Assembly (NCBI GenBank): GCA_964016885.1
Contig: OZ024741.1
Coordinates: 148,862,001-148,926,000, forward strand
Direction of reading: 5' to 3'
DNA length: 64,000 bases
DNA from: Eledone cirrhosa
Taxonomy: Eukaryota
Part shown: one piece after another, positions 16,387-40,200 of the stretch
Layout: every line of letters begins with the position of its first letter
How positions within the stretch are numbered: position 1 is the stretch's first letter
Notes under the pieces: generated by a model
What the model was told of the DNA's origin: nothing
Databases searched by the model: none
Seen by the model: the letters and a program-made list of their open reading frames with translations, nothing else
Program-made: the position numbers and the translations under genes

Positions 16387-19300
16387 CTAGTACTACTATA
16401 TATTTGAAAAAAGAGAAGAATGATTTCACTGGTGGTTGGTGTTCTCTGATAATTCAAATCTTTACAGTGTCATTATTGATATAACAATAATGAATGTCAA
16501 CAAAATCTCCTTCCATCTACCGTGGTGTTGAATAGTAGTAGGAATTTTGTTTATCTTGTAATATCTATGCAGGTCATGACAAAAGATTAAAACGGTTGTT
16601 GTCAGAAAAGGCATCTGTTTGTTAAATGTTACTTCAAAGAGGACCATATAGTTAGCCTCCTATGAGATGAAACCCCATAGCAGACCAGCTAAAACTGTAT
16701 AGATGTGGCCTGTAAATTTCATTAAAACACATAAGGAGGCCAGCTAAAGCTGCATAGTTGTGAGTTGTAAATTTCATTTTTCATTCCTGTAATTTTACAA
16801 TGCTACATCTAGAAAATTTTACAGGACGATATCAGCTATATATACAGTTTATTATGGGGTGTGGGTTAAATTATTTGGTAAAAAGCAGTACTCTTTGACT
16901 TTATTTGCCAATTTATCTTTCTAACTGTTTGCTAAAGGTTGTTTATTGAATTGTCTTTGTAAATATTTCAGGCCCTACTAGTCACTGGCAACGACCAAGC
17001 ACTCAGAGCAGCACTACCTCGCCACATTATGACAACCATCTTCATTCATTAGTAAGTGGTTTACAATATTTTCTCCAGATATTCTATATTGAAATCTTCT
17101 AAACATTGCAGTTGGTCCAACTTGTTTGCAAGTGAATCTTATATATACTAGCAGAAAAACCACCCTCTGTGTGGTTTTCTGCTAGCATGTGTAGTGTGTA
17201 TATTGATATTATACGCAAGTATATGTATATATGCATGTAGATATGATAGATCAAATAACATTGTAATTGACAATATACACAGAAATTGAACGAGGACTGT
17301 GTTACACGCTCTTATGCAATCAGTAACGTAATCCATGATACATTAAAAAAGACGATATTATATAACTGCATTAGGAGAAAATTAGTGACGGAAATATATG
17401 AAGTTTATTTAAACGATTGCTAACCGGAAGTGTTGGCATTTGAAAATTTTAAAGAAGTGAATCTTTAAATAAACAATAAAATATATTTAATCAACAGCTA
17501 CGAAATTTAGTAGATAAATTATGTAATATTCATTCATTATTTATTCAAAGTAATCCAACTTATTTTACTATTGGGATAAAAAATTATAAAACATACGCAG
17601 TCCCGCACTCCTTACTTTATTATAGTTTAGATTGTTTTCTACAGTAATTCATTTGAACAAACAGCAAAGTCACTGAATCATTTGATTGTCAGATTAAATG
17701 TTTCAGCATTTATTCCAGCTCACCAAAGTCAACTTTGTCTTTTGCTTTTTATCCTTTCCTAGTCAATAAATAAATGGGTGGAGTATTGGTAAAATTGTTA
17801 AAGAGTTGAAGAGGATGCTTTGTGGTATCTGATCTGGCCCTGTGCATTCTAAGTTTAAATCCTGCCTATTTCTGCCAGAAGTTGCAACCAGTGGATAGAA
17901 TCACCATAGTTTCTCTGTTCTAATCTAATAATTGGGCTCTTTTCCTTTCATTTGTGCAAAGTTATTTTGACATTGCATGTATTAAAAAGTCCTAAATACT
18001 ACAAATGCCTTTATTATCTGGCTGATTTGGCGGTGGATTGGCAGTATCGGTAGAGAGTCGGACGCCATGCTTTCCAGCATAGTTACGTCCCTTTACGGTC
18101 TGAGTTCAAATCCCGCCGAGGTTTACTTTGCCTTTCATCCTTACGAGGTCGATAAAATAAAGTACCAGTAATGCACAGGGTAATTGCAGGCCTTGTGCCT
18201 AAAGTAGAAACAATTATCTGGCTGATTTCATTCCAACAGTGAAGCTGTTCACATGTAAAAGTACTTAATTTCTACTAATGGAAGGTTAAAACATTTTGAT
18301 ATGCACAGTATTACAGACTTTATGGTCCTCCACTTTGCTTTACCTAACTCAGGTTATCAGAGCCTATGGGCATTAAAAAGGCATCAACTTATACAAACAC
18401 TAGGTCAGAGAAAAAAACATGTATGTTCTTAATTTTCTACACTGATCCAATTTACATAGCATGCAACACATGCATAATAACTGTGTGTTGATGTATGAGA
18501 TATATTCTTCTATGTTTTTACTGGTTTCAGTCATTAGACTGTGGCCATGCTGGGGTATAGCCTTTATTTAGTCCATCATCCAATGCAGTTATTTTTTTCA
18601 ATCTGGTACATATGTTATCAATCTCTTTTTTATTGAAATGCTTAGTTATGGGAAATAAATACAAATGCAGGAGGACACACATACAGATTTAATTTGATAA
18701 GGAGTGAGACCTCTTAGAAACTTAAGATAAACTAACATACTTTGCTATGGGTTCTTTCACGGTACTGAAAAACATGAGACTCTCTTAAAAATTTTAATGT
18801 TCTTTTATAGTTGTTTTTGCTAATTTTAACATAAAACTTCCTTCGTTACTGTATTAAATTTTTGTTTGTTATCTTTCATTAAAGCTACGCTACAGCAGGG
18901 GAGAAAACAAGAACATTCAAAAGGTAAGTTACTGTTATGTTCATATTTGTTTCGGTTGCTGAATACAACCAGGGGTCGCTGCTTCTCCTGAAGGTCAATA
19001 GTTCTCTTCTAACTCGAGCGGGAGCGCCTTTCCATTGTCAATTTGCATTGATCATCTGCAGAACCACTACACCAGTCTTTCGATGTGTGCAGCTGGATCT
19101 ACTGCCACCGATTGATTTGGCTTGATCGCAACTCATTTCTACAGCTGAGTAAACTGGAGCAACGTGAAATAAAGTGTCTTGCTCAAGGACACAACACACC
19201 ACCCGGTCCGAGAATCACACTCACAACCTTTCGATTGCAAGCTCCATGTGCCTTCACTATAGTTGAGCAGTGTTTAAAGATCTCTTGAACTAGATTCTGT

Positions 19301-25000: not shown

Positions 25001-26549
25001 TTATATTACTAAATCTTCAAAATTTTGTTATTTGAAAATCATAGGGAGTGTCTTTCATTAGGTAATGAAAAGATTAAAAACATTCCATAATAATTATGTT
25101 AAACCATCCATTACTGCTTTCCAATTAATGGAGACACATAATTAGTCGCTGAGTTCAAATCCCACTGAGGTTAACTTTGTCTTTCATCCTTACAAGGTTG
25201 ATAAAATAAAGTACCAGTAATGTACTGTGTAATTGCTGGCCTTGTGCCAAAAGTAGAAACAATTATTACTATTACCATATAGGGTTGGGCACCATGCTTT
25301 CCAACATAGTTACATACCTTTATGGTCTGAGTTCAAATCCCGTTGAGGTTAACTTTACCTTTCATCCTTACGGGGTCGATAAAATAAAGTACCAGTAATG
25401 TACTGAGTAATTGGTGGCCTTGTGCCAAAAGTAGAAACAATTATTACTATTACCATTTTATGTCTATTTTCCATGAATGGTTTAGACAGGTTGTCTTGCT
25501 CATATGTTCCATTTTTTAGCTTGGTGTCTATGACTGGATGCTCTTCCTAATGCCAATCACTTTACAGCATGTACTGGGTGCATTTTTCATGACACTAGCA
25601 CTATCACCTACAGGATGAACTAAGAGCTTTCTCTCATATCACCAGCACAATCACTTTACACTGGACTTGGTGCTTTTTTGTCATGGTACTAGTACTGCCA
25701 CTTTACAGGGTAGACTCAAGTGCTTTTTATCATGGCACCAGCACTACTTCATTCTGCCATTTGGGTGTTTGTTATGTCCTTAGCTCGGCTGAAGAATAAT
25801 TGATGAGTAGGGAAAACTACATATTGCTTGCCAAGGGAGGGAGTCATCCTACAGTGGGAGAGCAAGTGCCATGTCATGGATTTGTGTCTAGCAGTATATT
25901 GTGAGGCATGCCCAGCTTTCCATGTAAGTATGAGTTTGACAGAAAAAATTAATATCACAAAAGGGTTAATTATGATGTAATTATTTCTTTTTCTTTCTTT
26001 CTCTTCTAGCAAAGTAGAATGGAAGAACGTTTAGATGATGCCATATTGGTTCTACGCAACCATGCCGAAGGTCAACCACCTCCCGGTATGATTCCAGGTT
26101 TGACAGGAGGTCCAAGCAGCATAATGCAACCACCGCCACATTCCAATGGGACATCAGCTGGAATACCAGGTGGGCCAAATGCCAATATGCCATCTTACCA
26201 AAGTCTCAGTATGGCTGTGGCAGCTGCTGCACACATGGATTCCCATATGGTGAGAAGATACACTTCGCTTTTCATCTTATAGAATAATAATAACAATAAT
26301 ATCATTCAACAGGGAAAAAATGTTGACTTTGCTGTTTATTAGCCAGTATTTAGATTATGAGTGTTGTTGTTATTATTATTTGATTTATTTTATTAATTTT
26401 GTTTGAACACGAATGGAGAACTTTGCCATTGAGATGTGGAATTAAAAACAATTTATATAGAATTAAAATTTACATTAATGATTTTTATTTTTTTTTATTT
26501 TTTTTTTTTAGATGAAATTTTATAGAAATACCCTCTGTGAACTTTTATT

Positions 26550-28203: not shown

Positions 28204-31200
28204 CTGCAAACTACCAATATGTAGTGTATAAATTGAAATAAAAGAAGGAAATTTCACAAGTTTCTGTGTGCGTATGTGCAATATCAAAGCATGGTGTTGT
28301 AAGAAAGTATTTAATCCTATTGACCAAATTCGATATTTTTAATAGTTTTCTCTTCCAATAAAGTATGTGTACCCAATTACACAGAGATCCATATATTTTT
28401 GAAATTTTATTTCAGGGAAGTCATTCTTCACTAGAAGGTAGACAAGGTGGTTTATCAGCTGTCCCAGAACAGAAGCCATTTGATGGTTTGTATCACAATC
28501 TAGACATTCGTTGTTTTCATGTCTTTTAACCCTTTTGATACCAAACTGCCTGAAACTACCCATTGTTCTACAATACAAAACCTTTTTTTAAGTGTTTATA
28601 TTTATCTAAAAACCTTTGATCATAATTTTATGTAGGAACCTTAGTTAAGTTATGTTTCAAACATCAACTTGATAGCAAGTAAAGTTAATTATATTACTAA
28701 ATCCCTAAAAATTCTTGAATATTTTTCAAATTTATTAGAAAAATGGTAACTAAATGGTTAACTTAGTTGTATTGACTTTTATAATGTTTATTCTGTAGGT
28801 GGTTTTTAAAGAAATATGTTCAGACCTGACCATGTTTAGGCAGTTTGCTTTGCAACTATGTTGTTTTCAGTTTAATCCCACTACATGGTACCTTGGGCAG
28901 ATGTCTTCTACTATAGCCTCAGGTTGACCAACACCTTAAGTGAAATTTGGTTAGCAGAATCTGTGCAGAAGCCTGTCATGTTTCTGTGTATGTATATGGT
29001 TGCTTAGTAGTTTGACAAAAACTGGTTGATAAGTACCAGGCTTGATTAAAAAAAATATATACTTGTGTTGTTATGAATGACTAAATCACTTCAAGAGAGT
29101 GTGCTAGCATGACTTCAATCTAATGATTGGGGCCAGTAAAAGGATAAAAGAATAAATGTTTGAATCATTGAGCATTATTTTAATTAAGCATCAAGACATG
29201 ACAGTAAAAGGATAAAAGAATAAATATTTTAATCAAGCAGCATAGTTTATATGAACCCTTGTGAGATATGTGATTATGATTGTTTTGGGAAAGCCAGTAC
29301 AATGTAAATTAGAAATAGAAAAACAAAACAAAAAAGGACAGTTTACACTTTTAGCTTGTATTTCATGGCATCTCACTGCTCGTTATCACCACCATACTCC
29401 ATTTCCTTTCTTTTGAAAAATATGTCTTAATTTCAAAATATGAAATATAAAAGTAAAAGTGTAAACTGTTGTTTTGTTTTTCTTACTTTAACTCTACTCT
29501 AGTTTTGACTCTTGTGTTTCTTATTTGGATTGTATCGGTTTTCCCAAAACAATCATAACTATTAGTTATAACTTATTTATCTATTAAAAACATTGTAAAT
29601 GGTATGGTCCCTATTAAAATCATCTTCACTCCACTATCATTTGACTGCATGTTCTGTTCTTTATTTTTAATTTTCTAGCATCATCTGGTAATCAGTCCTC
29701 AGAGGGGCCAACGATTAAAGTTGAAAAATCTGACAAAATGCAGTCCGACACAGAAGCTTCAAAAAGTGATAGCATTACATTGGAAAAAAATAACTCTCCT
29801 GGCAACTCAAATGCACCCCCTTCTAAACGAGCTAGGTAAGTTTAAGCGGACTAATTATCATTTTTTCAAATGTTAAATATTTTCTTTGAGACTCATCATC
29901 ATTTAATATCTGCTTTCCATGCTGACATGAGTTGGAAACCATATCTTGCTCATATATTCCATATTTTTGGCATGGTTTCTATGTGAGTGTATACTTATAC
30001 ACAGACACACACACACACATTGTAACATCAACCACTTTACAGAATGCATTGAGTGCATTTTATTGTGGCACCAGCACTAGAGAGGTTGTTATATACTAAA
30101 GAGTCCTCTCTATTCTATATTGCTTTCTGTTTCAATATTGTTTTTCAATTCTAAATTCAAGCAATGTATGTAAATGTCTTTTACATAATTTATTGAGAGA
30201 AAAAAAGCAGACATAGTTTTATGACTAAGGAGCAGTTGGCCAACCAATACCTTGTGAGTGAAATTGGTAGATGGAAACTAAAGAAGCCCACCATGAGAGT
30301 GTGTGTGTACATATGTGCATGCAAATCACAGAAAACATTATGTCAACACCATTTCTAAAATGCCAGTGATAATATTGTTTATGTCTCAAAAAATGCACCT
30401 GCAGCATATACCATGCTTAGAATGGCATGAGAAAGGGTACTGAGCTGTAGAAAACCTGCCAAAAATGATCTTAATCAACCCAAATAAGCATGGAAAAACA
30501 ATGATGGATATCTTATATAAGTTGTATAAAGAAAATTCTTTTTAAATGTCGATAATCACTGTTGTTTAATTAAATTGAATTAAAATCTATTTGTATATTT
30601 TCAGAAATAAACTGTTTCCAGAAACTACTGAAGGGTGGGTCCTCATTTCTACCGTATTTATCAAATTTCTTTTTTTCAATTCATCTATGGCTCTTTTAAA
30701 TGTACTTATGTGAAGTATTTTATAAAATATTTCTTACATTTAAAATTAATCTTGGATACAATAAATATTTGTTTTTAAATGGTTGATTTCTTTTGATTTT
30801 ATATTGAATTCTTCAAGCAATTAAAGTAATTGTATTTAATATTATTAAAGTGAAAGTTATGTGTATATCTAGATAGCAAAAGAAATAATAATTAGTGTGC
30901 TATGTATTCAATTATCTGACCTTGGTTTATTATTTATTTGTTTATAGCAGTGATGGGGATGAAGATGACTCACCAGAAGCTAAAGCTGAACGAGAAAGAT
31001 TGCGCAGACAAGCAAATAATGCACGTGAAAGGTATAGTTAACCTCTCATTATGAAATAAGCGAAGTTTATTTTATTTTGATATAAATTTTGTATTTATTG
31101 TTTCTTTAGTTTTGCTATAATTGGTGATATTCATTGAAATTTCCATTCTTTAAATTACCGTATATACTCGAATATAAGCCGAGGTAATTTGTGACCACAA

Positions 31201-34200
31201 AAGCAATGGTAAAATGGGGCTTGACATATTCCGGGTCGATATTTTGATGATTTTCACCAACTTCAAATTCTACATAAATAAGATGCTAAAATATCTGAAG
31301 TGATTATTTTACAACAAAACACTGTTTTTCTTGTGTTACTTCATCATTATTAGTGTTATTTATGCATTCTCTTGGAAATATTTCCAACAAATTTTTATAA
31401 TTTGAACTTTTTAACATAAATATCTCATACACATGCACACACACATACACGTTTTTCTCTGACATTACTTTTTCTTTCAATCTTACTTCTGATTTGTTTT
31501 TATTGCTTTTGCTCTCGCTTCTTCTTGCTCTGCCTCCCCTCACTCTCTTTATGAATCTTTATACAAAGTTCTCTTATTCAATCTTTTGTTTTCAACTACT
31601 CCTTGCTTATGAGTGGCCAGGAAAAAACAAAAATTCAAGAAACTGTTAAACACAAACTATACTAAACATCAAAATATTAAAACTGCATAAATATATTTTA
31701 TACTCATGATAATTTCAAAACCATGCCATCCTAACATAATGTGTTGAATAACTGCCTCAGCTTATAAATGGGATCCTGATTTTTGCCCATTTCTCAGGCA
31801 TAAATAGAAGAGTCAGCTTATATTTGGATCAGTTTATATTCAAGTATGTACGGTAAATCTGTTTTATGTTGTCAAATATAAAAATGTATAACTTTTTTTC
31901 CCCAAACAATTTTCTTCAAGATAATAGTGCGTCTTTACTCAAAAAAAACTTGTTAATCTGTTGCCTGGTAAAACACCACAACCTGGCCCTTGGATGCCTT
32001 TAGTGAAGTACTCATTGCTAGCATTCGAGTCAAATATCTTATTTGAGAATACCTCCCTTTCTCCCTCCCACCAGTCCCAGAGCTCCTGAAAAGGGTCATG
32101 GGTACTGCTCTTCCCTCCTTGACTAAATAGCAAAAAAAAAAAAAAATGATAAAAACCATGACAAGTTGTTCTCTCCACTTTACTGTTTTCTTTTGACTCA
32201 AGACAGCTGTTAACCCAGCCAACTGTTTCTAACAAACAGCTGTTTGTTAACCTGTCCAACTCTACTTACAAACAGCTGTTTCTTAACCAGTCCACCTCTT
32301 TTTACGAACAGCTGTTTAGGGACTCACCTTGCAGAGAAATTTGTCAGAAATCAAACCAAAAGAAGAATGTGTGAACTTTCACCATTTTTTTTTTTTTAGT
32401 TTTCTGTAAACAATAGTTTTCATATATTTATATATATATACATCTTATATTTTTCTACACGTTTCAGCAATGAGAAGCAATACATTGAGAATTTTGATTA
32501 CTTAATTACTTACACACATTGCCTCATCTGGAATAATAATAATAATAAAGTTAATATATACTCACAGGCATACACATTGCTGGCTGCTACAGGCTTACCC
32601 AGCATGCTTGTGATATTGCCTTTGTTTATTTGTTTGTACTTTAACCTTTTTCATAGCAAACTACTCTTGGTTCTATGATACAAAACTTTATTTTGTATCA
32701 TAGCAGTATGATTAGCAGTATCTTTCATTAGGAATGTGGTAACAAAACAGTTCAGTTGTAATGAAAAATTTCAACACAAAATCTTATTCTATTAATTAAC
32801 ATTACCTAATGGTTATGATGAGGATGGTGGTGATGAATCCAGTTTATACTGACATGTATTTCATTTCCCTGTTATCTGACTATATTGCATTACAAGATTA
32901 TTTTTTAAGATCCAAATGGTATAAATGTTTAGATTTATCTAAAACCTTCCTTCATAATTTTATTAAATTGTTCTAAACACCAGTTTACTAATGAGAAAGT
33001 TATCAAAATTATTTGAAAAATCATGTCTTTCATTGGAAATATGGTAATGAAAGTGTAGTTATTTAGCTAAAAGCCTTCCATCATTGTGTTATGTAAGAAC
33101 CATTGTAAGTTTTGTTTTAAACCTTTAGCATTTACATTATTCTATATATACTATTGTATTTTTGTGTTAAAGGTTTTATCTCACATAATTATCTCATATA
33201 ATATCAAATCTATGTTATTTATTTTGAGATCAATACCTTAACATCAGTATGAGTAGCTGGTTTGAACAGAAAGAGGTGAGAGAATTACGGCTGGTTTAAA
33301 TGCTAAAAGGTTAAACAATAGATAACTAATGAGAAAGTTAACTATGTTACTAAATTCAATTTTTTTATTTTCAAAATTATTTGAACATCTTAGTGCCTTT
33401 TATTAGAAAACCCATGCTAGCGTGGAAGATAGCTGTTAAACGATGATGATGAAAGTAAAAAAGAGTTTGAAAACAAAGAAGGAGTGAACAGTAGTGAAAA
33501 TTTTCTCACAAAATCTTACCCTATTAATTAACATTACCTAATGAGGATGATGAGGATGGTGATGATGAATCCAGTTTATACTGACATGTATTTCATCTCC
33601 CTGTTATCTGACTATATTGTATTACAACAAGATTATTTTTTTAAAGATCCAGATGGTATAAATGTTTAGATTTATCTAAAACCTTCCATCATAATTTTAT
33701 TAAGTTGTTCTAAACACCAGTTTATTAACAAGAAAGTTATATTACTAAATCGGTCAAAATTATTTGAAAATCATGTTTTCATTGGAAATATGGTAACGAA
33801 AGGGTTAAAGGGCAGCTATTTAGCTAAAAGCCTTTCATCTTAGTATTATGTAAGAATCTTTGTTAAGTTTTGTTTTAAACACTAGGTAATTGAGAAAGTT
33901 AGCTATGTTACTAAATTCAATTTTTTTTTTTTTTTTTTTTTCTAAAATTATTTGAACATTTTAGTGCCTTTTATTAGAAATAAAGTAAGAAAGGGTTTGG
34001 AAATAAAGAGGTAGTGAACAGTTGTAGTAAACATTTTCTCACAAAATCTTACTCTATTAATTAACATTACATAATGATCATGATGAGGATGGTGATGATG
34101 AATCCAGTTTCTACTGACATGTATTTCATCTCCCTGTTATCTGACTATATTGTATTACAACATTAATGGTGTCTTTCATTAGAAATAGGGTTGTGAAAGG

Positions 34201-37200
34201 GTTAAAACAAAGCTATAAACTTTTCAAGAAACATAACTGTTTAGTTAAATGCAATGCTGCCATTGAATTTTTAATATTTATTTCTTAATTCTGTATCTAT
34301 TAAAAACAATGGTTATTTTTACATTTGTATTTTGAAAATTATGTTTTGTTTCTTTTTTAACTGTGTCTGTGTCTGTTTGCACATGTCTGGCCATGTGCTT
34401 ATGTATCTGAGATACAGAGAAATACGAAGATAATTTTATGTCATTTGTTTTGCATCATTTATAGAATAATGTGTTTATCCTTCTTTTTGTTTAAAATATT
34501 TCTGATTTCTATGTTTTAAAATAATTTTCTTGAATTTCAGTTATTATATTTATAATTGAATTTTGTCTCATTATTTTCCATTCATTTTGCATATTGGTGC
34601 CTTCCATTCTGAATATCATGTAACTTGTAATTTATCTATTTCTATTTAATCTATGTCACCACTCTTGTGGCATTTTAAAAAAGGTTTTTTGTTCTTTGTG
34701 CAAAATATGTAACATACTTTTGTGTAAAGCTTTCACAATGTCAGCTTTTGACTGATTATTTAAATTTGATAATAAAAAAAAAAAGAAATTGAAGGAATTA
34801 TTTTCTTCATATCAAACAATCATTTTGCTTTTAAAGCAAACGAGTTCTTGGATGTTAAGTTTGTTGTTTGCGTTAAGTTTACTGAATTAAATTCACTTGA
34901 GTGCTGCTTTTGTCATCAGAATCAGAGTACGGGACATTAATGAAGGTTTCAAAGAGCTTGGGCAAATGATAACTTTACATTCAGGCAGCAACCAGCCACT
35001 GACGAAGGTGATGATTTTACAGCAAGCTGTCGATGTCATTATGTCTCTCGAACAACAAGTGAGAGGTTAGTTACTTGGAGCACACTGTACTGCTACAAAA
35101 TTGTCACCTTTTATCACCTGGCAACCTGTTTTTCTCTCTCGCTCTTTCTCTCTCTGTCTTTCTCTCTCTCTCCTTTTCTGTGAGTCCACAATAGATCTAT
35201 CTATCAGTTGCTTCTTAAGCAGCATGTGCAAGGGAGATTAGTTTATGATAAATCGAAATGTGAGGTTGTTAACTTCGGATAGCCACTAATGCATGGAACA
35301 TTCCTACCTTTACATATTCTAATACCCTCTATTTCAGCAGAGTTTTTTTTAATGATATATCACTGCATGTATCTCTTAACAAATAGATAGAATTTCTGGA
35401 TTCTTTACACTCTCTTACTTCTTTCACATCAAAATAGTTACTGTCATTTCTTATTCTACAAATCTCATAGTAAACATTTATAAAATATTCTTGTTGTTGT
35501 AATTTATTAGTATACTAGTGTCTTGTAATTTAGGAATTCAACAGGTGTAGTAATGTGCTTATTAATAACATAACTGTTTACAAGGTAGAAGGCAAACTAC
35601 TAGATGGTAATAATAAAGAAAAGTGTTCCAGCATTGCCTTCATCATCATCATCAATGATAGGAATATGTGATAATTACAGTATTATTTGGTAAATAAAAG
35701 TCATGCAAGTAATTTAAGTTTTTAGGTTTATTATATTTATTTTTGTAAGACATCCACTAAACATTGATGAAAGGACTAGAATTTATATCATTAAAACACC
35801 CAAGAAACCTGTAATAAGATTGCATAACCTAGCAGGCCAACTATACCTGTGAGCCATAACAATTAAAAATTTAATTATACTATATTTTTATATATACATA
35901 TAGAGAGTGTGCCCCCACCTCCTCCCACTGTAAAGTGGCCGTGTAGGTGTCACGGCAAAAAAGCACCTAATCCACACTGTAAAGTGGTCATGTAGGTGTC
36001 ATAATAAAAAAACACCCAGTCCACACTGTAAAGTGGTCATGTAGGCACCACAGTAAACAAGTACCCAGTACTCACTGTAAATGAAATTGGTGTTAGGAAG
36101 GGAATCCAGCTGTAGAAATCAAGCCAAAATCAGTTCTCTATGAGTAAGACATGGTCACCTGACCTGGCATTGCCCACGACAGGACAACTCGTCTAACCCA
36201 TGTTAGCATGGAAGAATGGTTTTCCAATGAGACCATGTATAGTGATAGTACTGGTACTACAGCAACAAAAAGCACCCATTCCACCCTGTTTGGTGGTAGT
36301 GGTGTAGCCACAAAAAAGGGTTTCAGTCAACCTTATTAGGTGGTAGTAGTGGTTCCACAACAACAAAGCCCCCAGTAATGTGGTTAGAATTAAAAAGGGC
36401 ATTCAGCTATAAAAACCCAGTCAAAACTAGATGTGTATGAGCAAGAAGTAGTTAGTTGACCCTGCTAGCCCAATAACATAACAGCCTGTCTAACCCATGC
36501 AAGCATAGAAAATAGATGTTAAATGATGATGATGATGATGATGCAATGCTGTTACTACAATCCAGCAAAGTGCCACAGGAAGCTATGTAGGTGTCACTAA
36601 AAATAGTCTTCAGCCATATCTTTTTCAGGGTGTAACTATCCTCCAAATATTCCTTTGTAAATTGAGTATAAATTTCTTTGAAGAAATAATTTATACCAGC
36701 AATAGCTAACCATCAATTCTATGATGGTGTTGCTCCTCTCAATCAGCTATAATAATGTGACAGCTCTTTTCCTTTTTCAAAAGTAGCTTTATGTTATTTG
36801 TTTTAGCAAGTTAAAATAATCTATTTCCTAGTCTATTATGTCTTTGATTGTTTTTTTTAGAAAATGTCATTTGTGTAATTTACTGTCTTTTGTATGATGT
36901 ATCTTAAGTATTATTACATTTATACACATACACACACAATGTGTATATATGCTATTACAGAAGTTGTATTGTCATTCATCCATATTTTTACAGAATAGTT
37001 TCAGAATATTCTTAAGTTATATTCACTAATAATTCCTTTTATTTTTTCTTCATTTTGAATTGTGCTCCAATATGTATTCAATTATTTCTTCTGACAAGTC
37101 TTACCAATTGCCTGGTCCATCAATCTCACTGATCTTACCATCCAAGCTGTTTTGCTTGTTTTGGAATTGGTGTAACTGTTGTCTACATTGCTTGCTGTGA

Positions 37201-40200
37201 ACACACTTAGATGGTATCAATACTATTTATTATTTCTTCCATCTCTTTCCCATTCAGTTCCATATACATTCGCACTTTCCTCTCTGTATTGTGCTCAATC
37301 TTGACTGACTGTTGTTAATCATAGAAAGTAATTTGGGTTGTTGTAATTTCTAGTTCATCTAGCGTTTACCTTGTTGGTTTACACACATATACACACTGCA
37401 CATAGACAAAATTCAGTAAGTTTGGAAAAGTAAAAAACAATATTTCCAAATGCAAGAAGTAATATAATGTACTAACAGAATCCTGGAAGGCCTACCACCA
37501 AAATGCAAATGTTGGGATGAAAAGTTAATTGTGGACGTTCTTTTATTTCTGGACGTGTTCATTCTCTTTTGTTGCACAGGGTTCGAGTACGAGATATTAA
37601 TGAAGCATTTAAGGAGCTGGGTCGCATGTGCTCCTTACACCTCTCAAACGACAAACAACAGACTAAATTACTGATCTTACAGCAGGCAGTCACCTTGATC
37701 ACAAGCTTAGAGCAGCAAGTACGAGGTAGGGATCGTTTTATTGTCCATATGGTTGTCCTCAGCTTTCACCATCATACGCAACTCACCATTTCACTAAAGC
37801 TACTACCGATTAATTAACATCTAATAATTCTCTACTTAGAAAGAGCAACATTTTTAAACATGCTAATCCCTAGCTTGATTCCACTGTTCACTAAATTCTC
37901 TGCTCCTTTCTGTGTATTGTCATTTAAAAGGAAACATTTACTAATATATAATTAATGTCTCAATTAAATCTTTAACCTCTATTAATACCAGGCTGCCTTA
38001 GACTACCCCTATTTCTAGGACATAACACTGGTGAATTTCAACTATTCAAATGTTCCATCATAATTTTATCTAAAAGCATTTTTGTTAAGTTATACTCCAA
38101 ACACCGGCTTAATAATGGAAAATTTGGTTAATTTACTAAATCCTTTCAAATCTTTGATTATTTTAAAAATTGAAACACATGGATTAGGGATACAGGTTAT
38201 TTCTACACAAATGAACACCCATATCTCTCTTTATATATATATATTTGAGAAGTTAATATTAATTGCAGTTATATGTTATCCATATCTGTGTGGTCCCTCA
38301 ATGTTATTTAATCAATTACACTAATTCTCAAAGATATGCAATTTAATCTTTTAATTGTTAGTGTCAGTGTAAATATAATTATAGTGAAAATTGCTTTATT
38401 AATGCAAAAAAAAAAGAAAAGAAAACAGGCAAACAGACAAAGGTATTGACCATTTTTCTTAAGTTCTATCTTTAAAAAAATTATCAAAAACAAGGAAAGG
38501 AAAAGAGCTGATTATGAGATTAGACCAAGCAAACTATGTTGCCTTTAGTCTTTCTATTGTTGATACTATCTGCCAGTTGCAACTCCTGGCAATGAAAGTG
38601 TTGGTATTGACAAAATCATAGGCCAATCTAAAATGTATCATTCTTGAGTGTTGTTTTCATTGATTTTTATCGATCTTTACTGATCTTCAACATAGATTAT
38701 GGAGCTCTGTAGATAGCAATTGGCAGCAATTATCTGCAGAAATAGGTTTTGAAGTTTCTTTTGGCTAATCTTTGAAACATGTTCATAAATCATTTTCCAG
38801 TAGATATTTTATATAGATTCTATGAAGAACGTACCATTAACCTTTTTGATAACAAACCATCTGAAATTGCCTCTACTTTTATGATGCTAAGCTGTTTATT
38901 TTAAAGTGTTTATATTATCTAAAACCTTCCATCATAATTTTATGTAAGAACATATTCCAAACGCCAGTTTAATAATGAGAAATTCTTGATTATTTTCAAA
39001 ATTGTTAAATACCTCCTGCCCACACTGTTTTAGTCATTGATGATATAACATTGAGATCCAACTAAATGTAAAGAAGCTGGTAAATTACAGATATAGTCTA
39101 GTTGCTGAATGGGGCAAAATGTTGAGTATGTTTGAGGAAATGTCCACATGGCCTACATAATTCTAAGTTAAAATCTCTTGGCTAAATTCTGGTAATTTCT
39201 GTTATCTTTCTACTAATATCCAGCTTGCCTGATAACTATGATTGTCATTAACCTGTTTGTTCATGTACATGTGTACTTCAGATCTTCATTTATTCCAGCT
39301 CTGCCTTACAAACTCTTATTGTACAGTTAACATGCCATGTCCAACTTATTCATTTCATGAACATCACAACACCACATTATTATAACACTTCTACAACTCT
39401 GCTCTAAATTTATTGCCCACAATCCTACTGAAATTGCAGCAATGTTTTGTCAAAACTCTTTTGTACCAACCAGTATATTTTTCTTGTCTTCAAAGTTATT
39501 CTAAACTATATCTCTAAACATCAAATTAGATGCAACAACACTGTTGCACTTTACATTGTAAAACATCAGAATAGTGTGCAGTGTAGACACAGATCAGACT
39601 GAACCATGGCATGTGTTGGTGTGATAAATTTATTGTTTGCTTCTATATGTGATGTGAATTATCTTTATGCTAATGATATTCTCAGTCAACAATTACAAGA
39701 ACGATCTAAGTTACAAATATACCAGCAGCAGTTGTGTTGAAATAAGGACATACTGCACAAATACTTATGGTAGTGTGGACTCACTCTTCCCTTGATTATA
39801 ATGTAAATGTTTTGTTCTTATTTCAGTATAATATTGTGCGTGTGTGTTTTTTTGTTGTTGCTTTTTTTTTTGCTTTTTTTCTTTTGTAAAGCTGCCAGTG
39901 ACATACCAATATCATATATATGACTGGCATTAGTAGAATACTTTCTGCAGCGGATCTGAATGGTCATTTTTCTGGGGGTTTCATATCACATCACTCATTA
40001 TTTTCACAACTATGTAGTTGATAGTAGGTTTTTTTTTTCCTCCCTCCAATAATTTAGGCCCAATATCTTAATTAGAAGACCAAATCAACCCATGTTTGTG
40101 TGAAGTGTTATATAGTGATTGAATGGAGATAATAGGGACTCTTTAGTTTTGCCATGTACATAACCTCTCTAATTCCATGATATAATGACCAGTGGTTTGC

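Follow-up and report, generated by a model that had tools for sequence, protein, structure and literature searches.

Two tandem helix-loop-helix exons behind one basic-region exon of the single E-protein gene of octopods, most likely mutually exclusive in splicing

The single E-protein gene of octopods contains two tandem helix-loop-helix (HLH) exons, here called A and B, behind one basic-region exon, and a given transcript most likely includes one or the other. The two isoforms are predicted to read the same E-box and likely differ in loop-dependent regulation, and the duplication appears to be old. We assign this reading a probability of about 0.78. The analysis covered a stretch of 64,000 nucleotides of Eledone cirrhosa DNA, hereafter called the window.

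The window contains the 3' portion of the octopod E-protein (TCF3/4/12, daughterless) gene, the 5' start of which is located further upstream. The encoded protein was recognized as a class I bHLH E-protein by its HLH domain, its E-protein basic region and the conserved segment that follows. Exons A and B each scored above the Pfam cut-off for HLH, and TCF4 and E47 were the top matches among solved structures. In tblastn comparisons with the TCF12-like protein P0104 of Octopus bimaculoides, the exon matches were 76% to 100% identical, with 65% for exon A. The exons were placed as follows.

6115..6339, + strand: upstream coding exon, 96% identical to P0104 by tblastn, AG/GT borders
12298..12376, + strand: coding exon
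16965..17054, + strand: coding exon with approximate borders, 90% by tblastn
18885..18923, + strand: small coding exon at an approximate position, match of 13 amino acids
26010..26249, + strand: coding exon carrying the LDDAI motif, which we take to be activation domain 2
28416..28484, + strand: coding exon with approximate donor
29679..29835, + strand: coding exon ending in phase 2, also found as a piece of a presumed RNA contig
30605..30634, + strand: micro-exon of 30 nt, phase 2-2
30948..31031, + strand: shared exon S, with the acidic stretch and the basic region, NAGNAG acceptor at 30948/30951
34920..35065, + strand: exon A, HLH of the spiralian A type, loop GSNQPLT
37580..37725, + strand: exon B, canonical-type HLH, loop SNDKQQT, present in all annotated octopod isoforms seen
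43442..43558, + strand: downstream exon C, the end of the helix 2 region and the conserved segment after it
47503..47795, + strand: last coding exon, to the stop

Both NAGNAG acceptors of exon S, at 30948 and 30951, are used among the public octopus models. The exon ends after two bases of the Arg codon equivalent to TCF4 R578, and a phase-2 intron interrupts the basic region. A donor for exon C at 43563 was replaced by 43558 based on the joint in an RNA contig and on P0104. Profile and peptide scans of the window identified neither a further HLH copy beyond A and B nor another basic-region exon besides S.

Exons A and B agreed base for base with the original prediction: both were 146 nt long and of phase 2 to 1, with CAG acceptors and GT donors (GTTAGT and GTAGGG), and they were identical at 31 of 48 amino acids, as claimed, and at 89 of 146 nucleotides. 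They thus form a tandem pair of homologous exons within one gene, alike in length and phase, as is typical of mutually exclusive exons. A scan of positions 31032 to 43441 for open-frame segments of 146 nt between AG and GT returned these two exons and nothing else, and both of the candidates scored in a genome search were exons A and B. The reading frame was open throughout in S+A+C and in S+B+C. As had been predicted, double inclusion (S+A+B) leads to a TGA stop at 37672, and double skipping (S+C) yields R-K-K-S followed by TAA at 43452. Each stop precedes a later junction by more than 50 nt, and nonsense-mediated decay would be expected to clear the double-included and double-skipped products.

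The codons differed at 20 of the 31 residues that are identical between A and B, which indicates that the protein identity has been kept by selection; no residual similarity was detected between the introns flanking the two exons. Exclusivity would presumably be set by splicing regulators. Steric exclusion through a short intron was ruled out, since the intron between A and B measures 2514 nt. Exclusivity of the Dscam type depends on complementary docking and selector elements in the introns beside the alternative exons. No exact pairing of this kind was seen close to the exons: the longest exact complement among the six 300-nt flanks was 7 to 10 nt, the same as in shuffled sequences. Of 226 inverted repeats, the 25 longest were of low complexity or located after B, with no docking/selector pair among them.

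To place the exons phylogenetically, we inferred trees from 48 columns, with no outgroup from non-bilaterians or invertebrate deuterostomes. The A-type exons of molluscs, annelids, nemerteans, and flatworms formed one clade (36 rows, support 100/96), and an A clade was also obtained in a second tree (12 rows, 100/98), while the spiralian B exons formed no supported clade. A recent octopod duplication, in which A and B of the window are sisters, was rejected (p-AU 0.018); the corresponding grouping was not rejected for Lamellibrachia (p-AU 0.089). From these comparisons we infer that the duplication would predate the split of molluscs, annelids, nemerteans, and flatworms. Exon A was located upstream of B in all four gene models that contained both (Lamellibrachia, Macrostomum, Echinococcus, and Taenia), and separate A and B isoforms were found in Lineus (1 A, 7 B) and Owenia (4 A, 1 partial B). 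Conservation of exon A reached 83% in oyster and chiton. In the annotated proteins of other molluscs, all 178 modules (174 proteins, with up to three copies) were of the A type. Crustaceans contained an HLH-only exon pair of their own, and insects and several molluscs repeated the basic segment instead; the Popillia protein P0036, which contained the same HLH twice, is a probable model or assembly artefact. No published account of an HLH exon switch in spiralian or crustacean E-proteins was found in the literature searched, and the accessible parts of PMC8657788, PMC4244043, and PMC1828162 contained nothing on E-protein exons (the matches shown for PMC8657788 were all in its reference list).

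An alignment with TCF4 bore out the expectation that the DNA-contacting residues are kept: all nine contacts named in PMC6895265 fall in exon S or are invariant between A and B. Both isoforms are therefore predicted to read the same E-box. Among the dimer-packing residues, 17 of 21 were identical between A and B, including E568, H576, Q590, and E600, which make inter-monomer hydrogen bonds in E47 (PMC8283981). The A-specific changes were concentrated in two places, where helix 1 ends and in the loop, and the diagnostic A columns mapped onto E47 R571, K581, and Q583, which are involved in an E47-ID1 salt bridge and a hydrogen-bond network of the loop (PMC8283981).

The original prediction accepted the same splicing and proposed that the swap mainly alters the choice of class II partner through the dimer interface. 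This would fit the four packing positions that differ, G/A565, V/L586, V/L595, and M/T597 (E47 numbering), and position 587, which is Met in all A-type rows, a column used in defining that set. We consider it rather unlikely, however, given the 17 identical packing positions with their four bonding residues, and because the molluscs for which only the A type is annotated would have to pair it with all class II partners. We instead favor a difference in loop-dependent regulation. Exon B has retained the residues common to vertebrates and arthropods. In A, the Arg that closes helix 1 is gone, as are three loop residues, Asp/Glu, Lys, and Gln. The A isoform would then be an E-protein with a rebuilt, uncharged loop that keeps the DNA specificity and the core dimer geometry. 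As a functional guess, A and B may differ in stability and in their capture by Id/Emc-type inhibitors.

It had further been suggested that the pair arose independently of vertebrate E12/E47, or represents a rearranged ancestral switch. That the duplicated unit of vertebrate TCF3 also repeats the acidic and basic part was seen in read-through models, and the proposed sharing of the basic region with a swapped HLH was borne out by one basic segment in the window versus two in the TCF3 models; no duplicated unit with acidic stretch and basic region was present in the window. In the proposed exon tree, A was separate from the vertebrate exons: the vertebrate E12, E47, and lamprey rows grouped together (91/82), as did the arthropod rows (94/87), both outside the A clade. 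The AU test did not reject the grouping of A with E47 (p 0.18), E12 (p 0.185), crustacean exon X (p 0.177) or the arthropod canonical exon (p 0.099). An independent origin is thus favored by the exon unit and the best tree, although orthology to E12/E47 was not rejected.

Could A and B instead be what is left of a single old switch, dating from the bilaterian or protostome ancestor and homologous either to E12/E47 or to the crustacean pair, that was later remodelled by intron loss and exon homogenisation? The AU results are compatible with this, the crustacean pairs are likewise HLH-only with the divergent exon before the canonical one, and the 3' border is shared with the vertebrate read-through models. 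On the other hand, the best trees join the vertebrate exons with lamprey and the two arthropod exons with each other, the vertebrate unit includes the acidic and basic part, a single module was present in the TCF4 proteins seen from lamprey and shark, and crustacean exon X shows none of the A signatures and resembles the arthropod canonical exon in helix-2 residues. We regard a common ancestral switch as unlikely, and the A/B duplication as probably independent of both the vertebrate and the crustacean pair.

Evidence on splicing came mainly from contigs of two runs, X1 and X2, from one study of a different but related organism. Their RNA nature is presumed, as no run was recorded as RNA, and they were taken as spliced because one contig joins exon C to the last exon. 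In both runs, A and B were each represented by a contig of 203 nt in which the exon started at letter 31; a one-of-two splice bubble at k=31 is expected to give branches of 203 nt. The upstream contig extended 113 letters past 29833, which equals 2+30+81, and so stops at the end of exon S. The downstream contig, which also includes the last exon, began 3 letters before exon C, and these are the 3 letters common to the ends of A and B. The S-A and A-C junctions in the relative are deduced from these lengths and offsets. Together with the separate Lineus models, this geometry places A and B each between the same flanking exons, and spliced S-A-C proteins (P0008 and P0009) were obtained from oyster Logan contigs. 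No sign of double inclusion was seen in the two contig graphs, in which rare forms are dropped, and the joint and loose-end tables of X1 and X2, swamped by repeats, did not show S, A or B in any exon joint. The combined branch depths (34+48 and 32+38) exceeded the flanking contig means of about 53 to 59, and contig depth is no measure of inclusion. In run X8, weak and of uncertain library type, the share of 0.65 was close to the exon part of the query, with depths of 9.9 for A and 19.5 for B. The relative's exon A contained no stop in the 8 listed of 11 differences, and among the changed codons listed between the two cephalopods, 3 of 6 were replacements in A versus 1 of 3 in B.

The frame logic and the bubble thus make one-of-two splicing most likely, as originally proposed, and the branch of its own, the orthologues and the listed differences argue that exon A is alive rather than a dead duplicate. 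That A is a poison cassette or decaying duplicate beside a constitutive B, with inclusion of A before B leading to decay and tuning gene dose alone, is highly improbable: the premature TGA, the absence of exon A from all 16 annotated octopod proteins and the equal X8 depth on B and upstream (19.5 and 19.4) would agree with it, but with a cassette, B would be fused to C in a single contig and would lack 30 letters of upstream context belonging to it, whereas B formed a separate branch and the C contig started at the letters shared with A, and decay is contradicted by the conservation in oyster and chiton, by A being the sole annotated type in the 174 other-mollusc proteins and by the selection on protein identity.

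Class II bHLH factors, the proneural and myogenic ones among them, have E-proteins as their shared partner, and to our knowledge invertebrates have been regarded as having one generic E-protein. We tentatively suggest that the intron in the basic region made the single protostome E-protein gene a kit of two modules, each duplicated repeatedly, and that the uncharged-loop A type alters or escapes Id/Emc control and has replaced the canonical HLH in most molluscs. Under this scenario, duplication of the HLH module would have given rise to A/B in the spiralian ancestor and would have recurred in crustaceans, oysters, and clams. The basic segment would be the module repeated in insects, bivalves, chiton, abalone, Owenia, and another cephalopod-like transcript, and A and B would persist as a switch in cephalopods, annelids, nemerteans, and flatworms. 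If so, splicing in protostomes would fill the role of gene duplication and E12/E47 in vertebrates. A conserved HLH switch would also mean that two proteins are pooled whenever octopus, annelids, or flatworms are studied by knock-down, single-cell gene counts, or domain surveys, and that studies of snails and bivalves may deal with a non-canonical E-protein. The pair offers a natural experiment on the role of the HLH loop, for which isoform-specific probes are easily designed.

Mollusc surveys list one E12/E47 gene per mollusc, and splicing is not mentioned in the main text of Bao 2017 (PMC5381572). From class I E-proteins such as TCF4, TCF12, daughterless, and HLH-2, the Eledone cirrhosa gene differs by the phase-2 intron in the basic region. 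Exons A and B resemble tandem duplicated exon substitutions in their identical length and phase, conservative divergence, and age. Such substitutions have been described as arising convergently in orthologous genes (PMC9741552), and a transcription factor would now join the known cases of repeated exon duplication; the main text of that paper, on human, fly, and worm, contained no TCF or bHLH entry, and the spiralian/crustacean E-protein case was not found in it. An exon within the HLH motif is likewise duplicated in vertebrate COE/EBF, another family, but there it is the helix-2 exon and, according to the title of the paper, its inclusion is mandatory rather than exclusive (PMC2394523). The closest parallel is provided by exons 18a/18b of TCF3/E2A (E12/E47), which are tandem homologous bHLH exons with mutually exclusive splicing (PMC6795145). 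The two systems share the gene family, the tandem exons, and the 3' border after EQQVR, but TCF3 repeats the acidic stretch, basic region, and HLH, whereas the Eledone cirrhosa gene repeats the HLH alone. The E12/E47 isoforms differ in homodimer DNA binding, and the switch between them is controlled by hnRNP H/PTBP1. Unlike in TCF3, the acidic stretch, presumably the E12 inhibitory domain, is common to both Eledone cirrhosa isoforms, and the A-type loop is unlike that of any vertebrate row.

The switch between the helix-loop-helix (HLH) exons A and B is real and ancient, and very probably functional. All coordinates and counts in the original prediction for this part of the gene held on recheck:

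30948-31031, forward strand: exon S, shared, with the acidic stretch and basic region
34920-35065, forward strand: exon A, alternative HLH exon
37580-37725, forward strand: exon B, alternative HLH exon
43442-43558, forward strand: exon C, downstream of both

Translation of the window placed two bases of an Arg codon at the 3' end of S, and A and B are each 146 nt long (1 + 144 + 1). As had been claimed, the joined translations were open only for S-A-C or S-B-C, with a stop at 37672 when both exons are included and at 43452 when both are skipped. Each of these stops has a later junction more than 50 nt downstream, which makes decay of the double-inclusion and double-skip transcripts plausible. 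A scan of the S-C interval revealed no 146-nt open AG/GT segments besides A and B, and a comparison of the HLH peptide with the 3.0-Gb genome scored at least 2 candidates, both inside the window. Judged by its sequence, the gene is an octopod E-protein gene, because its remaining exons matched P0104, a TCF12-like protein of Octopus bimaculoides from our homologue searches, at 90% to 100% per exon; the value for exon A was 65%.

The exon borders showed some additional features. The acceptor of S is a NAGNAG site (30945-30950) that adds or drops one Ser, and public octopus models show both forms. A second possible GT is located 5 nt 3' of the used donor of C (43558-43563), and the oyster contig proteins P0008 and P0009 continue into the intron after this donor, giving a shorter C-terminus. 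The local direct repeats of 150 to 390 nt in the S-A intron (32758-34165) are ordinary interspersed repeats, with a high copy number genome-wide by read depth.

The use of exon A was examined in Logan contigs from 2 sequencing runs of one study on a related organism, in which the exons were about 92% to 95% alike. They were among 4 runs compared with the window out of 8 listed, none of which was recorded as RNA, but the material of these 2 was spliced, since a single contig in each connects exon C with the last exon. A and B were each contained in their own contig of 203 letters with the first base of the exon at letter 31, and 203 is also the branch length expected from a two-way bubble with a word length of 31 (Logan's k), 0 shared first bases, and 3 shared last bases. 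The upstream contig runs 113 letters beyond 29833, corresponding to 2 letters, a micro-exon of 30, and 81 of S, while the downstream contig begins 3 letters ahead of C. This geometry fits A and B as alternative branches, with the S-A and A-C joints deduced from lengths and offsets and not from junction letters; any rare co-inclusion of A and B would be dropped from such contigs. A model with A as an optional cassette ahead of B would fuse B to C in a contig, and no such fusion was present. The contig depths for A/B (34/48 and 32/38) do not sum to the mean depths of the flanking contigs and should not be read as inclusion levels.

Exon A of the relative differed from the window at 11 sites, and the 8 listed comprise 3 synonymous codons and 3 replacements, the latter at the end of helix 1 or in the loop, with no stop among them. 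As A-type exons are also widespread, the suspicion that A is a dead duplicate was not borne out. None of the 16 annotated proteins from Octopus and Argonauta contains exon A, and the A isoform is thus apparently absent from these public sets.

Homologue searches, a representative search, and cluster look-ups yielded at least 506 proteins, of which named ones of interest were labelled by species. A followed by B was present within one gene model in Lamellibrachia, Macrostomum, Echinococcus, and Taenia, and the two occurred as separate isoform models in Lineus (A in 1 of 8) and Owenia (A in 4 of 5, the B model being partial). With the annelid-mollusc split dated to more than 540 million years ago (PMC6317319), the pair has a minimum age of more than 540 million years. 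Among the matches listed, all 178 modules from non-cephalopod molluscs (174 proteins, 35 labels) were of A type, which would suggest a loss of B in these animals, within a set that draws on an A-type query and on at most 15 members per cluster, and with annotation that missed A in octopus. Three distinct A-type copies were identified in both Magallana and Ostrea, and 2 in Pinctada, Gigantopelta, and Ruditapes, the last with a further variant that differs by one residue. Tandem pairs of B-like HLH exons in contigs P0129, P0130, and P0132 suggest further lineage-specific duplication of B. A different HLH-only pair was found in the crustaceans Homarus, Cherax, Procambarus, Hyalella, Darwinula, and Cyprideis, both exons of which are represented among the spliced models for Cherax and Procambarus.

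A phylogeny was inferred from 110 modules (69 distinct rows, 48 columns) of named proteins. The majority of the vertebrate TCF3 models were set aside, with 4 retained, and modules that are truncated or fused were likewise excluded (the first of Echinococcus, Cichlidogyrus, the first of Macrostomum P0134, and Owenia P0287). The A clade, including A of the window, had 100/96 support, the vertebrate E12 and E47 rows clustered with lamprey and TCF4 rows (91/82), and the arthropod rows formed a cluster (94/87), except for the long Hyalella row; the spiralian B rows showed no resolved grouping. In AU tests on 28 rows, A and B of the window as sisters were rejected (p-AU 0.018), while Lamellibrachia A and B together (0.089) and A with crustacean X, the divergent exon of the crustacean pair (0.177), or with the arthropod canonical exon (0.099) were not. 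The residues that B has in common with vertebrates and arthropods would make B ancestral and A derived, in a tree without an outgroup. The separate clusters favour an independent origin from E12/E47, one of the two origins that had been put forward, but the AU test also did not reject A with E47 (0.18) or E12 (0.185); for this reason, and given the unrooted tree, independence is likely and not proven.

The claim that most of the basic region is shared was upheld, as the first 6 DNA contacts of TCF4 (R569, R570, N573, N574, R576, and E577; PMC6895265) are encoded in S. The R578 codon is interrupted by the intron, and the remaining contacts, R580 and K607, are identical in A and B, as are 17 of the 21 E47 packing residues in PMC8283981 (its "Ile563" taken as Ile562). 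Codon 9 of exon A (34945-34947) encodes Gly at packing position E47 565. Ala is nearly invariant there: 33 of the 36 A rows have it, and so do all 33 others. The 2 types differed at TCF4 positions 593 (Arg in 33/33 non-A and 0/36 A rows), 602 (Asp/Glu in 33/33 and 0/36), 603 (Lys/Arg in 33/33 non-A, Gln in 36/36 A rows), and 605 (Gln in 32/33 non-A, Leu/Met/Ile in A rows), although 605, like 609, contributed to defining the A set. These correspond to E47 R571, D580, K581, and Q583; R571 takes part in a salt bridge of the E47-ID1 complex, and K581 and Q583 belong to a hydrogen-bond network linking the loop with the helices (PMC8283981). Based on these roles, the isoforms are predicted to differ in function: they would recognize the same E-box and retain the same core, with altered loop, stability, and inhibitor handling.

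Steric exclusion was rejected as a means of enforcing the choice, the A-B intron of 2514 nt being too long, and complementary flanks beyond chance level were not found. By likeness to TCF3, in which exon choice is governed by RNA-binding proteins with decay as a back-up (PMC6795145), the default would be that RNA-binding proteins also set the A/B choice, backed up by decay.

Other segments of the gene are repeated as well. Many insects, several bivalves, a chiton, and abalones have two or three basic segments upstream of a single HLH, and from borders at the same Arg we infer that these are probably separate exons. Tandem acidic/basic segments were seen in P0436-P0506 (insect daughterless models), P0054, P0055, P0069, P0073, P0083, P0090, and P0092; in some second copies the residue ahead of Arg-Glu, adjoining the DNA-reading residues, is altered (Asp, Asn, Val). 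Compared with P0102, the cephalopod-like Logan transcripts P0274 and P0275 contained a short alternative basic segment in place of the S type, followed by a B-type HLH; no counterpart of this segment was found in the window. Oyster and pearl oyster proteins (P0012, P0013, P0001, P0004) carried an LDDAI-motif segment in tandem, with isoforms containing one or both copies; in the window this segment is present once, at 26010.

In the literature covered, most subscription journals lying outside this coverage, we found no account of an invertebrate E-protein with alternative HLH exons. Surveys of E-proteins in pearl oyster, insects, and sea urchin may mention isoforms. Bao 2017 counted one gene per mollusc; "splic" is absent from the main text, and 4 supplement passages on E12/E47 are tree labels. 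Simionato 2007 does not mention exons. Both isoforms are already in public annotation for some species, and thus constitute open but seemingly undescribed data. Neither convergent exon duplication nor the mutually exclusive use of bHLH exons is new in kind; what stands out here is the wide distribution of the pair among spiralians, its apparent replacement by A alone in most molluscs, and the fact that modules of this one gene have been duplicated repeatedly. Compared with E12/E47, the A/B pair is a structural variant of that kind of switch, not a member of it.
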